Assembly: GCA_963793425.1 (NCBI GenBank)
Contig: CAWCAG010000009.1
Location: forward strand, 704,001 to 768,000
From: an uncultured cyanobacterium
Lineage (GTDB): Bacteria; Cyanobacteriota; Cyanobacteriia; Cyanobacteriales; CAWCAG01
DNA length: 64,000 nucleotides
Reading direction: 5' to 3'
Shown: positions 3,001-6,000 of the stretch, in pieces
Numbering within the stretch: position 1 is the first letter of the stretch
Layout of the letters: every line of letters starts with the position of its first letter
Made by a program: the position numbers

Positions 3001-6000
3001 AAGCCGCAAACTTAACTTGGAAGCAGGTTAATAAAGGGGTGACTAAGGCAGCAAAAGTATGGTATCAGGGGAAGGTAATGGGTAATAGGTAATAGGTAAT
3101 AGGTATGATCTCAAATCTGGTTCATAAAGTGCCTTGATAAAATCATGGCATCAAGTTTTCAAACCCTGCTCCCTACTCCCTACTCCCCACCCTAACCGAT
3201 AACCTTTGCAACCAAACCCAGGACTTAATATGACTATCTACTTCTATGGCCCTCGTGTCAAACCCTATGGTTGTTTTTCCAACTTTTCTCGTCATGGTTT
3301 TGAGTTAGACGGTGCTTGGTGGGCTACTAGTGAGCATTATTTTCAAGCACAAAAATTTATCAATACTGATGCAGAATGGGCTGAAAAAATTCGTGGGGCT
3401 AAAAGTCCTAAAGAAGCTGCTAAAATGGGACGCGATCGCAATTATCCTTTACGCAGTGATTGGGAAAAAGTTAAGGATGGCATTATGCAACGCGCTGTGT
3501 TGCAGAAGTTTTCTACCCACAATGATCTCCGTGAGATTCTTATTAATACAGGGGATGAGTTAATTGTGGAAAATGCTCCCGGAGATTACTACTGGGGTTG
3601 TGGCAAAGATGGCAGCGGCAAGAATAAGTTAGGAGAAATTCTCATGGCAGTACGAGAAACTTTGCAGAAGAATCAAGAGTCGTAAAGGTAATCGGGAAGA
3701 GTTGATAGTAACATCTTCCCAACTTCCAATAATTAAGGGGAGGTTGTCTAAAAGGCAAGACACCGTAGAAAAGTTTTAAAACGGTTCCCACAAGGACAAT
3801 CGGGTTTTCCTTAGTAAGGTCAAAAGTTGCATCGCGACATTCCCTGAATGGGCAAACGGGTAACAGGTTGCAGAGGCACTGAAAGGAATTAATAGTCCGA
3901 AATGGGGGTGGTTCCCATTTGCTGTAAAGGTAGTAAGGAAGCACTTTTCCTGAAAGTTACCGTCGGTTGATGCGGGTTCAAATCCCGTCCTCTCCATTTT
4001 TAAAATCGGGAGTTTTGGAGTGTTGCAAAGAGGAAAATTAAGGGAATGTAGCTCAATTTGGCAGAGCAACCGACTTTTAATCGGTTGGTTGTGGGTAACT
4101 CCTAACGGAGACGCTACGCGAACAAGTCCCACCATTCCCACTTTTTCATAAAGGGGAGAAAACTATTAAACATTGGCAAAAACAACATTTCGTATTCTTG
4201 CTCGGAACGAGGCAATGCGTTGCAGAAAAGTCATTGCTAAGGAAGAATGCGAAGGCGCGAGGCAGAATGTAGTCTGAGGTGAGACTATGATTTTGCTTTC
4301 GCGCCCTTTTTTTTGTTAACTTTCACAGTAAAACTAAGCACTGGTTTAGTTTTACCAAGGACTCCCAATCATAGTAAAAGCACTCCAATAATAAGGATGA
4401 TTCAAATTTTCATCCCCTAATGCAGCTAAATTTTCTGGTAAGGGAATTTCAATTTCTGGAGTAATCAGCTTGCCGTCTTGCAACTTAACTTCCCCTCTAA
4501 TCATCGCTAGTTGCGCTTGGCGCAGGGCTTCTGCTTTAATGGGGGCTACCTTGAGTTGCTCGTAGAGTGTAGCCATAAACCCTAAAGTACCTTCATCGCT
4601 TACTGTCCATAAGCTTCCCAGGGCTGATTTAACTCCGGCTTGGTTAGCTAACCCAGCAAAGCCTAATTCTGATTCCACACTGCCCACAGCAGTACGACAA
4701 GCACTTAATACCATCAACTCTACCGCAGGCTTATTTAAACCTAGTTGCCGCAATTGATCTAAACTAATTTTCTGGTCCCAAAATTGAATGTATGAATTAC
4801 TGGGTTTACCAGCATTAAATTCAGCATGGGTAGCGAGATGAACGATACCAAAAGGTTTATTAGCACGTTCTGATTTAAGATTTCCCGGAGTGAATTTGTC
4901 CCCCAGCAAAGATTTACCCGGCCATAAATTGTTAGCAATTGTCTTTATTTCTATAGGTACAGCAGGTAAATCTGGTAATTCAGCAAATGTCTCGGTTCCC
5001 ATGGCTAAGACTTCCATGTTTTTAACATCAACATAGCGAGTGTCAGTCAGAGAGAGACTCGGCATCAAACCTAAGCTATATTTTTCCAGGACAAACTGTT
5101 CACCATCGTGAAGCGCGGCAATGGGGATAGAACGTATCCCAGTATCTAGTATAAAAGCGAGGTTATTAATACCTTGTGCCTGCAACTCCTCTTCTAAGGG
5201 GGCAAGCAGCCATTGATATAGTTGTTGGGACGGGACTAGGTAAGCATTGGGACGGGAAGGATTAGTGATGGTGCGGCGAAAGGTTTTAGCAACTTGTTGT
5301 ACCTTGGCACGAGTTATGCCTCGTATCGGTTTGCGGAGGATTTTTCCTTCGGCGGTTAAGAGAACAAGTTCCAATTGATCATCTTCTTGGGGAGGAAATT
5401 TTAAGTTGTTAGACTTGCTTTGTTGTTTGTCCCCCTTATTTTCTGAAGGTGCAGCTAATTCGGCCGGGAAAAAGGCAGCGTAAATAAGGGCTGGTTTGAC
5501 TCCTGTTTCTCTGTTGATGCTGCGTAAGATATCTTTAGCTTCATCTAAACTAGTAATTTCGTTATCATCTTCTTCACCAAAGTAATTTTCAAAATCCTCA
5601 GTAAATTTCTCCTCTAATTGCTGAATGATGGGGTCAATTTGCAATTGGGGAACGGGTTGGTCAAAATTAACTTTTGGCAGAGGAGTTTCTTCGGGAAGAA
5701 TATCATCTGGAACAGGATCATCTACGGCTATGGTTGCTACATCAATGCTTACTGGTTGCTGAGTCGAAGAGACACCATCGCTAACACTGATGGTAAAACC
5801 ATTTACACTGCCTGTAGTTCCTGCTGGGGGTGTGTAAACTAAAGTATCTCCAGAAGAAATAACCGTTCCTGCTGTTGCCGTTACGCCGTTAACTGTGAGG
5901 ATGCCTGCATCAATTGATACGATAGTGATGGAGGTGAGGTTATCACTGTTCACATCCCCAGTAATTGGGTTTAAATCAGCAAAGGTGAAGGTAAAAGGTT

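Follow-up and report, generated by a model that had tools for sequence, protein, structure and literature searches.

The window analysed here is a 64,000-nt stretch of contig C9 from an uncultured cyanobacterium, with its position 1 corresponding to C9:704001. Between a NADAR gene and a tRNA-Lys(UUU) gene lies a candidate RNA gene, which we call X, at window positions 3737-3996 on the + strand. The survey's finding had extended this RNA over 3737..4005; the RNA part, 3737-3996, was retained, whereas 3997-4005 is trailer and was removed. Conservation among X homologues ends at both gene ends, and the flanks cannot be aligned. As had been claimed, ARAGORN is silent at the locus, and every Rfam family remains below its own cut-off, including the Rfam tRNA model, which also makes no call. 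The array in the window is a remnant, and the window copy of X carries a private 1-nt insertion. No other copy of X was found in the genome, the sole match being 22 nt in a tRNA-Ser(GGA) gene of the same remnant, and a scan for promoter and terminator consensus sequences stayed at chance level. The features of the locus are as follows.

3206..3685, + strand, NADAR gene, directly 5' of X (context)
3737..3996, + strand, entire X RNA, 260 nt from G1 to discriminator A73; homologues align end to end
3737..3743, + strand, acceptor stem, 5' strand GGGGAGG, pairing with 3989-3995
3746..3761, + strand, D-arm (helix 2), stem GUCU/AGAC, loop with A14, G18G19 and A21
3763..3784, + strand, covarying 4-bp hairpin (CCGU/ACGG) where the anticodon arm would be, closing an A-rich loop of 14 nt
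3786..3796, + strand, mini hairpin UCC-CACAA-GGA (helix 4), weak with 3 bp, possibly the original variable arm
3797..3802, + strand, insert closing helix, 5' strand CAAUCG (helix 5)
3804..3857, + strand, insert lobe 1, nested helices with a GUUGC-AUC-GCGAC hairpin (helices 6-8)
3859..3961, + strand, insert lobe 2, helix GGUAAC/GUUACC around five hairpins (helices 9-14)
3964..3969, + strand, insert closing helix, 3' strand CGGUUG, then 2 nt (AU) to the T-stem
3972..3988, + strand, T-arm GCGGG-UUCAAAU-CCCGU (helix 15)
3989..3996, + strand, acceptor stem, 3' strand CCUCUCC, and discriminator A (3996); CCA is not encoded
4042..4140, + strand, tRNA-Lys(UUU), next gene 3' of X, T loop enlarged by a 26-nt insert
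4254..4315, + strand, long G+C-rich hairpin followed by a nine-U run, likely the end of the transcription unit (region z = -4.29)

The sequence at the two ends of X is as the survey described it, with a 7-bp acceptor stem, a G3:U70 pair, a discriminator A, and a canonical T-arm. Among 53 distinct X sequences, G1-C72 is present in 52, G2-C71 and G3:U70 are present in all 53, and G7-C66 occurs in 52, the remaining one having a compensated A-U; position 73 is A in 51 and U in two. The alanine identity set G1-C72, G2-C71, G3:U70, and A73 is complete in X, in keeping with the survey's alanine marks, while the minor alanine element G20 is missing. PMC9976931 gives these four as elements common to all tRNA-Ala and describes a class II tRNA-Tyr that was turned alanine-accepting by G3:U70 alone. 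Position 3:70 was surveyed in the 308 tRNAs that ARAGORN called in nine array loci and in this genome. The G:U pair was found in 14 of 18 tRNA-Ala versus none of 26 tRNA-Ser, as well as in five other calls (His, Arg, and Asp) that appear shifted by one base. Because some further G:U pairs inside X are also invariant, the invariance of G3:U70 alone is no proof of selection for AlaRS. Judging from its sequence, X is probably charged with alanine.

The core of X is that of a tRNA, in which the acceptor, D, and T arms are present together with the tertiary nucleotides U8, A14, G18G19, A21, U54U55C56, and A58. One pair of the D-stem is U-A in the window copy versus C-G elsewhere. At the anticodon-arm position, the fourth pair of the hairpin reads UG in 35 sequences, UA in 10, CG in 6, and GC in 2; instead of a 7-nt loop bearing U33 and an anticodon, X has a variable loop of 13-17 nt there. 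The only partial BLAST matches of X elsewhere that ARAGORN could name were the 3' ends of tRNA-Ser genes. Likewise, when three X copies were compared with 305 tRNAs, each had a tRNA-Ser as its top match, with a modest score (20-29, where 52 is the maximum possible). Set against an array tRNA-Ser(GCU), X reads G3 for A3 and A73 for G73 and has one compensated T-stem pair. X shares with class II tRNA-Ser the G49:U65 of the T-arm, a short D-stem (3-4 bp), and a hairpin in the variable region, and the class II acceptor, GGAGAGG/CCUCUCC, is one base away from its own (A3 versus G3). Unlike class II tRNA-Ser, with its A3-U70 and G73, X has G3:U70, A73, an anticodon loop of enlarged size, and a large insert before the T-arm, and it escapes both ARAGORN and the Rfam tRNA model.

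This 173-nt insert follows the variable hairpin and precedes the T-arm. Both sides have changed in four of seven pairs of its closing helix (helix 5), and in the 218-nt forms of X in L040 and L065 a 13-nt hairpin takes the place of lobe 1. The RNAalifold consensus of the survey was recovered from 22 rows, with 72 pairs at -71.7 kcal/mol, 11 of them compensated, and the acceptor stem in 21 of 21 full rows. In a 77-pair structure, which was derived from the same 53 distinct sequences that were then used for counting, 98.2% of cells pair and 15 pairs are compensated, compared with 5.6 +/- 1.5 in 500 shuffles (none of which reaches 15) and 1-5 in slid controls. These covariation counts are inflated by kinship; the sequence diversity is narrow, and 35 of the 52 named loci are Microcoleus. 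The nested fold accounts for the covariation of X; an all-pairs scan is swamped by the two-clade phylogeny and kinship. From these two analyses, no pseudoknots such as form the ring of tmRNA could be demonstrated in X. When X was folded as a single sequence, shuffles folded equally well (z = -0.46). Mimicry of rRNA by the insert was rejected, as merely chance words of 8-12 nt were shared with the rrn operon of the genome. That X pairs with the SRL-GAC RNA of these arrays was also dismissed, since the duplex energy of -98 to -111 kcal/mol equals that of shuffled controls (-97 +/- 6) and is meaningless.

Of 401 genomes of the order, 22 (counting G000) gave full-length BLAST matches to X, at 76-83% identity. 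They fall in 10 genera as read from the table, and neither the same-genus genome (G027) nor the same-family genome (G059) is among them, all as reported by the survey. There are no matches of intermediate divergence, every named match is cyanobacterial, and more than half of the copies belong to one genus. In a phylum-wide BLAST sample, X was present in 12 of 401 genomes including G000, the other 11 being of one genus of the same order, and an exact-motif scan reached records titled Leptolyngbya and Leptolyngbyaceae. The plasmid and phage collections contained no match, nor did any viral contig. X is a member of long tRNA arrays (L-arrays), co-oriented within a run of 20-45 tRNA genes, and its position inside such arrays near the SRL-GAC RNA was confirmed. 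The nearest upstream tRNA is tRNA-Ser(UGA) on the same strand in 16 of 21 loci, the array neighbours of X are tRNA-Ser(CGA) and tRNA-Ser(UGA), and in L121 only 4 nt separate the end of X from the start of the next tRNA. We also examined the protein neighbours in 11 loci (10 fetched and the window) and found no consistent partner adjoining X. NADAR is near X in four of them, directly upstream in the window, L114, and L120 and about 2 kb upstream in L119, and PIN proteins adjoin X in three. Searches of the literature revealed no account of an RNA of this kind; Supplementary Figure S8 of PMC8421152, an array comparison, might show the gap.

X is better conserved than its neighbours. Between arrays, its identity is 84-97% versus a median of 69-89% for tRNAs of the same anticodon, with X higher in 15 of 15 pairs, and sequence comparison indicates that X is under purifying selection. 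This conservation argues against an interrupted or dead gene, be it a tRNA with a group I or protein-spliced intron, a decaying tRNA-Ser pseudogene filled with junk, or the carrier of a gene for a 16-residue peptide, all of which we consider very improbable. Truncated or damaged copies (L047, L079, and L084), the RNA ligases and Tpt1 encoded by the arrays, a 16-codon frame, and a short stretch that by our reading resembles the group I R and S elements would be compatible with such a gene. However, a group I model gave no match at E values up to 10, removal of the insert would still leave a 13-17-nt loop without an anticodon, the frame shows no coding signal, and BLAST did not find the insert by itself elsewhere, save for one 35-nt match. 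A group I intron in a tRNA gene was rejected: no model matches, and the flanks of X cannot form a normal anticodon arm. A protein-coding gene at X is likewise ruled out by the 1-2-nt indels among copies.

The survey had interpreted X as a tmRNA paralogue or transfer-messenger-like RNA. While its description of a conserved non-coding RNA with tRNA-like ends stands, the paralogue interpretation is not supported, given the D-stem, the hairpin at the anticodon position, the kinship with tRNA-Ser, and the lack of tmRNA similarity. The Rfam tmRNA model gives X the reported 18.2 bits against a cut-off of 47 (window 3905-3999), below the 27.7-29.4 bits that the same model gives ordinary tRNA-Ala genes, and ARAGORN makes no tmRNA call. 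The true tmRNA of the genome is indeed encoded elsewhere (C5:1592455-1592852, 124.8 bits, 398 nt), and the alignment score of the X insert with its body is 17 versus 16.7 +/- 2.4 for shuffles. Frame counts over 65 distinct copies agree with the earlier remark that no tag frame is evident, as there is no conserved coding signal. The sole conserved open frame has 16 codons, ends in UGA or UAA, and is open in 63 of the 65 copies; its synonymous and non-synonymous changes number 10 and 16, compared with 4 and 21, and 10 and 15, in the remaining two frames. In the window copy this frame carries a frameshift, and in L020 it is read through. No SmpB paralogue lies nearby, as the survey had noted, the single SmpB gene being on contig C7.

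These results count against a role in rescue, in which X would enter stalled ribosomes with EF-Tu, tagging or not, or would titrate SmpB or EF-Tu, and we regard such a role as quite unlikely. The alanine marks, the elbow, the T-arm, and the frame open in nearly all copies would suit such a role. So would the exit of the body of X at the variable-arm position, resembling tmRNA helix H2, which according to PMC3968760 mimics a long variable arm, and the location of X in an array that is stress-induced according to PMC8421152. In tmRNA, as described in PMC3968760, the D-loop is reduced and without a stem, the anticodon arm is absent, and SmpB fills that place; in X, the D-stem and the hairpin at the anticodon position take it. 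Moreover, no EF-Tu release trigger is known for X, which has neither an anticodon nor a protein partner.

With moderate confidence, we take X for a functional L-array RNA gene that arose when a class II tRNA, of tRNA-Ser descent, was remodelled into an alanyl, non-decoding mimic. The acceptor would have changed from GGAGAGG to GGGGAGG, giving G3:U70, and G73 to A73, yielding the alanine identity set. The anticodon loop would have been destroyed by an A-rich insertion of 5-6 nt followed by drift, and a folded, two-lobed domain would have been placed after the variable hairpin, ahead of the T-arm. X may then be transcribed together with the array during translational stress, released, as the neighbouring tRNAs are, by RNase P and RNase Z, completed by CCA addition, and charged by AlaRS, and it would act as a mimic of alanyl-tRNA outside decoding, with the conserved insert as its working part. 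PMC8421152 reports that translation inhibitors induce these arrays and that array tRNAs are charged.

The same insert could instead be everything that matters. Under this alternative, which is possible but on balance doubtful, the tRNA chassis serves processing, 3'-end protection, and stability only, the insert would capture a protein, toxin, or antibiotic as a decoy or sponge, and aminoacylation is irrelevant. Lobe 2 of the insert contains the most invariant stretches of X, and the arrays hold a second non-tRNA mimic RNA, the SRL-GAC RNA, alongside numerous counter-measure genes (Macro, PARG, NADAR, Tpt1, RNA ligases, an EF-Tu copy, acetyltransferases, and PIN proteins). In addition, the T loops of four X copies tolerate an insert of about 25 nt, although these copies may be dead. 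However, the acceptor is invariant, including the wobble pair that is otherwise read in tRNA-Ala of these genomes, and A73 is retained in nearly every copy. Furthermore, neither Rfam nor ARAGORN calls the SRL-GAC RNA as a tRNA, so that a tRNA chassis is perhaps unneeded merely for release from the transcript of the array.

In the RqcH pathway, alanine tails are added on split 50S subunits, and RqcH picks tRNA-Ala via the anticodon arm. X might donate alanine outside decoding, to this pathway or to an aminoacyl-tRNA-dependent transferase, which we judge highly improbable. The genome encodes an RqcH homologue (NFACT_N, 438.9 bits), the bulky insert would clash less on a split 50S subunit, the arrays also encode GNAT-fold and ATP-grasp proteins of unassigned role, and X combines alanine marks with the loss of the anticodon. 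Nevertheless, X lacks the arm through which RqcH would select it, and no partner gene adjoins it consistently in the 11 loci examined.

Returning to the alanyl mimic of tRNA-Ser descent, the insert of X exits where a long variable arm, or H2 of tmRNA, would, and its architecture therefore converges on that of the unrelated tmRNA. A bolder version, which we think unlikely, has the tmRNA principle invented a second time, independently, in X: its hairpin would stand in SmpB's place, and under antibiotic or toxin stress X would be delivered to stalled ribosomes or split 50S-peptidyl-tRNA complexes, where it would add alanine or block the A site. If so, X would be a living model of how tmRNA could have originated from a long-variable-arm tRNA. 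X resides in an array already known to respond to translation inhibitors and offers a testable handle both on the role of the non-tRNA parts of these arrays and on the emergence of a tmRNA-like architecture from such a tRNA. It also illustrates that tRNA-gene finders miss conserved members of these arrays.

Comparing X with tmRNA, both have an acceptor stem made by the two ends, with G3:U70 and a discriminator A73, a T-arm, a large structured body departing where a long variable arm would, and a link to translational stress. Unlike tmRNA, X bears a D-stem and, in the place of the anticodon arm, a covarying hairpin of 4 bp; it measures 260 rather than 398 nt, shows no sequence or model similarity, presumably descends from tRNA-Ser, and has no dedicated SmpB. 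Like YrlA and other bacterial Y RNAs, X is non-coding, has tRNA-like D and T elements, and occurs in a setting of RNA repair. However, the tRNA-like module of YrlA is internal and its ends form the Ro-binding stem. X was rejected as a YrlA or Y RNA, the Rfam score being 24.3 against a cut-off of 69 for a match that spans two genes, and no Ro60 (TROVE) gene was found in the 98.6%-complete genome. Plant-virus tRNA-like structures and engineered tRNA scaffolds also rely on a tRNA-like chassis, either to recruit tRNA enzymes or to stabilise a foreign RNA domain. Unlike these, X is encoded on a bacterial chromosome and bears alanine marks, and its insert is found where the variable region meets the T-arm rather than in the anticodon arm. 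To our knowledge, the natural classes of tRNA mimic are few, namely tmRNA, viral tRNA-like ends, and bacterial Y RNAs. If our interpretation is true, X would be a new class with a traceable origin, comprising a tRNA-Ser, a one-base-pair alanine switch, and a large conserved insert.

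X is a 260-nt RNA that runs from G1 to discriminator A73, and its two ends pair into a 7-bp acceptor stem that includes G1-C72, G2-C71, G3:U70, and G4-C69. The tRNA nucleotides U8, A14, G18G19, A21, U54U55C56, and A58 are present, while CCA is not encoded at the 3' end. The survey's finding of a conserved tRNA-like RNA with alanine marks was confirmed here; its contig coordinates were right, whereas its offset within the window, which starts at C9:704001, was wrong. The parts of X are as follows.

Window 3737-3996, + strand: X, whole RNA (sequence reading)
5' end, + strand: GGGGAGG, acceptor 5' strand, next UU
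D-arm, + strand: GUCU-AAAAGGCA-AGAC, next A
Anticodon-position hairpin, + strand: CCGU-(14 nt)-ACGG
Mini hairpin, + strand: UCC-CACAA-GGA
Insert closing strands, + strand: CAAUCG, 161 nt, CGGUUG, then AU
T-arm, + strand: GCGGG-UUCAAAU-CCCGU
3' end, + strand: CCUCUCC, then A

ARAGORN made no call at X, and no Rfam family scored as high as its cut-off there. The fold of the single sequence was not better than that of shuffles (z = -0.46), so the case rests on comparison among genomes. From 74 matched loci we obtained 72 full-length copies representing 53 distinct sequences, in which a nested structure of 77 pairs left 98.2% of cells paired. Fifteen pairs changed on both sides, compared with 5.6 ± 1.5 in shuffles (0 of 500 reached 15) and one to five in slid controls, in a structure predicted from the same closely related rows as were counted. 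Support is strongest for the anticodon-position hairpin, whose fourth pair is UG, UA, CG, or GC, the insert-closing helix (compensated in four of seven pairs), the stems of lobes 1 and 2, the AUGGGGG/UUCCCAU hairpin, and the acceptor stem, which shows one A7-U66 change. Two loci titled Leptolyngbyaceae (L040) and Leptolyngbya (L065) carry a 13-nt hairpin in place of lobe 1, which marks this lobe as a separate, dispensable module.

Between six arrays, X is 84 to 97% identical and lies above the median of same-anticodon tRNAs (69-89%) in all 15 array pairs, the flanks do not align between copies, and the alignment contains scattered indels of 1 to 2 nt. Of 65 distinct copies, 63 keep open a 16-codon frame inside X (MG.V..CL..VRKRVS), whose start codon lies in a conserved hairpin. 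In the source genome's copy (window 3902-3970), the frame is frame-shifted to 22 codons by a 1-nt insertion, and in L020 it is read through. No coding signal was found for this frame, with synonymous/non-synonymous changes of 10/16 versus 4/21 and 10/15 in the other two frames. Judged from these alignments, X is under selection and is not protein-coding.

BLAST detected a single copy in the source genome and full-length X in 22 of 401 genomes of the order, the source genome counted, at 76 to 83% identity. By our reading of the BLAST table these span 10 genera, a single one of which accounts for 11 genomes; X is missing from the same-genus and the same-family genome in this set, and nine more genomes match over 22 to 35 nt only. 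In a phylum-wide sample searched by BLAST, X was found in 12 of 401 genomes, the source genome included, and the other 11 all belong to a single genus within this order. Scanning one genome per species for an exact 26-nt motif gave 52 loci, all with cyanobacterial titles: 35 are Microcoleus, and the others include Lusitaniella, Aliterella, Adonisia, Aerosakkonema, Argonema, Kamptonema, Cyanothece, and Leptolyngbya. The motif had no loci in viral contigs, and searches of plasmid and phage collections were likewise negative. A looser motif returned 20 metagenome loci, comprising 15 full-length copies (14 new, one known), four damaged or unusual copies, and one chance match. Among damaged copies (L047, L079, L084, and L085/L089), two are truncated on the 5' side within lobe 2, one has an unrelated hairpin in place of the D-arm, hairpin, and closing strand, and two combine a short deletion in the closing helix with an altered acceptor base.

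In every case X shares its strand with the tRNA genes, and it sits near the 3' portion of long arrays that hold 20 to 45 of them. The nearest upstream tRNA is tRNA-Ser(UGA) in 16 of 21 loci; in two further loci, protein genes are wedged between the two, and in L121 only 4 nt separate X from the tRNA that follows it. The window carries an array remnant rather than a full array, in this order.

Just upstream of the window: tRNA Cys, Tyr, Ser(GGA), and Met
Second: Macro domain gene, then aspartyl protease gene
Third: tRNA-Gly, tRNA-Arg(UCU)
Fourth, window 1446-1657: SRL-GAC RNA, a copy of the sarcin-ricin loop and GTPase-associated centre of 23S rRNA (Rfam LSU match 1535-1611, 61 bits)
Fifth: RNA ligase fused to a tRNA-binding domain
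Sixth: NADAR, then X
Seventh: tRNA-Lys with a T-loop insert, then a strong terminator hairpin

In 6 of the 10 arrays retrieved, a homologue of the SRL-GAC RNA sits 0.56 to 2.7 kb from X, flanked by tRNA-Arg(UCU) and tRNA-Ala. Protein genes were surveyed at window 98-616, 1803-3092, and 3206-3685 and in loci L112-L121. The arrays gather the ADP-ribose-removing enzymes Macro, microbial PARG, and NADAR; those of other genomes encode these together with Tpt1/KptA, two RNA ligase types (one fused to a tRNA-binding domain), GNAT and hexapeptide acetyltransferases, PIN, HNH nucleases, and TnpB, and glyoxalase/bleomycin-resistance and DHFR-like types also occur. Two array neighbourhoods include a complete EF-Tu gene of 409 aa within a few kb of X (L115:3974-5203 and L116:6326-7555), and no protein gene constantly adjoins X among the arrays surveyed. 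According to PMC8421152 and PMC10272220, arrays of this kind stay silent unless translation is inhibited, and most of their tRNAs are charged once they are switched on.

After tRNA-Lys, window 4141-4325 folds far better than shuffles (z = -4.29) and closes with a long G+C-rich hairpin followed by nine U; a simple terminator scan did not pick this up. Inserts of ~25 nt that contain a small hairpin, several of them with ACGCU.CGCGAA as a common core, occupy an identical T-loop spot (U55 replaced) in tRNA-Lys(UUU) (window 4042-4140) and in four independent X copies (L020/L070, L098, L100, and L102), and another array tRNA has one in its anticodon loop (L002:452-551). They look like very small mobile repeats; small dispersed repeats were reportedly described in cyanobacteria by Elhai in 2008. 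ARAGORN also assigned array tRNAs the odd anticodons UUA ('Stop'), Tyr(AUA), Phe(AAA), and Asn(AUU) (L118:12382-12458, L117:5239-5313, L112:11635-11707, and L116:2067-2139). Elsewhere in the window, Rfam called NsiR1, small SRP RNA, 5S rRNA, and the 3' part of 23S rRNA (21072-21128, 39585-39681, and 62496-64000).

Several observations point to tRNA-Ser as the ancestor. In other genomes, the partial BLAST matches fall on the T-arm and 3' acceptor strand, and those with an ARAGORN-named gene are tRNA-Ser(UGA) or tRNA-Ser(CGA); likewise, the only other match in the source genome is tRNA-Ser(GGA) of the same remnant. For three of three copies tested, the best of 305 tRNAs was a tRNA-Ser, with modest scores. 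The array tRNA-Ser(GCU) of L119 has GGAGAGG/CCUCUCC, G49:U65, and G73, and in these parts differs from X in A3/G3, one compensated T-stem pair, and the discriminator. In our own reading, this origin also fits the short D-stem, the variable-position hairpin, and the CUUGAAA-/CUGGAAA-like loop remains behind an A-rich insertion. Among 308 tRNA calls, G:U at 3:70 occurs in 14 of 18 tRNA-Ala and 0 of 26 tRNA-Ser; five others have it and look shifted by one base.

The analysis establishes X as a conserved, structured, non-coding array member that is derived from a tRNA and bears the alanine identity set. RNase P and RNase Z would release X from the array transcript, after which it would receive CCA and be charged by AlaRS; according to PMC9976931, G3:U70 alone made a class II tRNA-Tyr accept alanine. 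X would then act without decoding. The main rival reading takes the tRNA chassis as a mere scaffold for a decoy domain. The source genome encodes an RqcH-type NFACT protein (C7:915714-917048, 438.9 bits), which raises the possibility of an alanine-tailing rescue pathway.

Judged against Rfam 15 and the literature searched, X is a new RNA family, and we found no description of it. A YrlA identity was rejected by score (24.3 versus 69) and by the absence of a Ro60 gene in the source genome, and a group I intron by zero model matches at E up to 10 and by flanks that are unable to build an anticodon arm. The survey had read X as a tmRNA paralogue. A normal tmRNA (124.8 bits, tag ANNIVPFARKTTAVAVA) is present in the source genome, as is a single SmpB gene; X scores 18.2 bits with the tmRNA model, below tRNA-Ala genes (27.7-29.4 bits), and its insert aligns with the tmRNA body at shuffle level (17 versus 16.7 ± 2.4). 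According to PMC3968760, tmRNA is without a D-stem, SmpB stands in for the D and anticodon stems, and helix H2 mimics a long variable arm. These scores, the unlike insert, and the D-stem and anticodon-position hairpin argue against a paralogue, and we replace that reading with a putative tRNA-Ser-derived, alanine-marked tRNA mimic of tmRNA-convergent topology. While tmRNA lacks both the D-stem and the anticodon stem, X has stems at both positions; the two have in common the alanine marks and the point at which the body exits the tRNA-like part.
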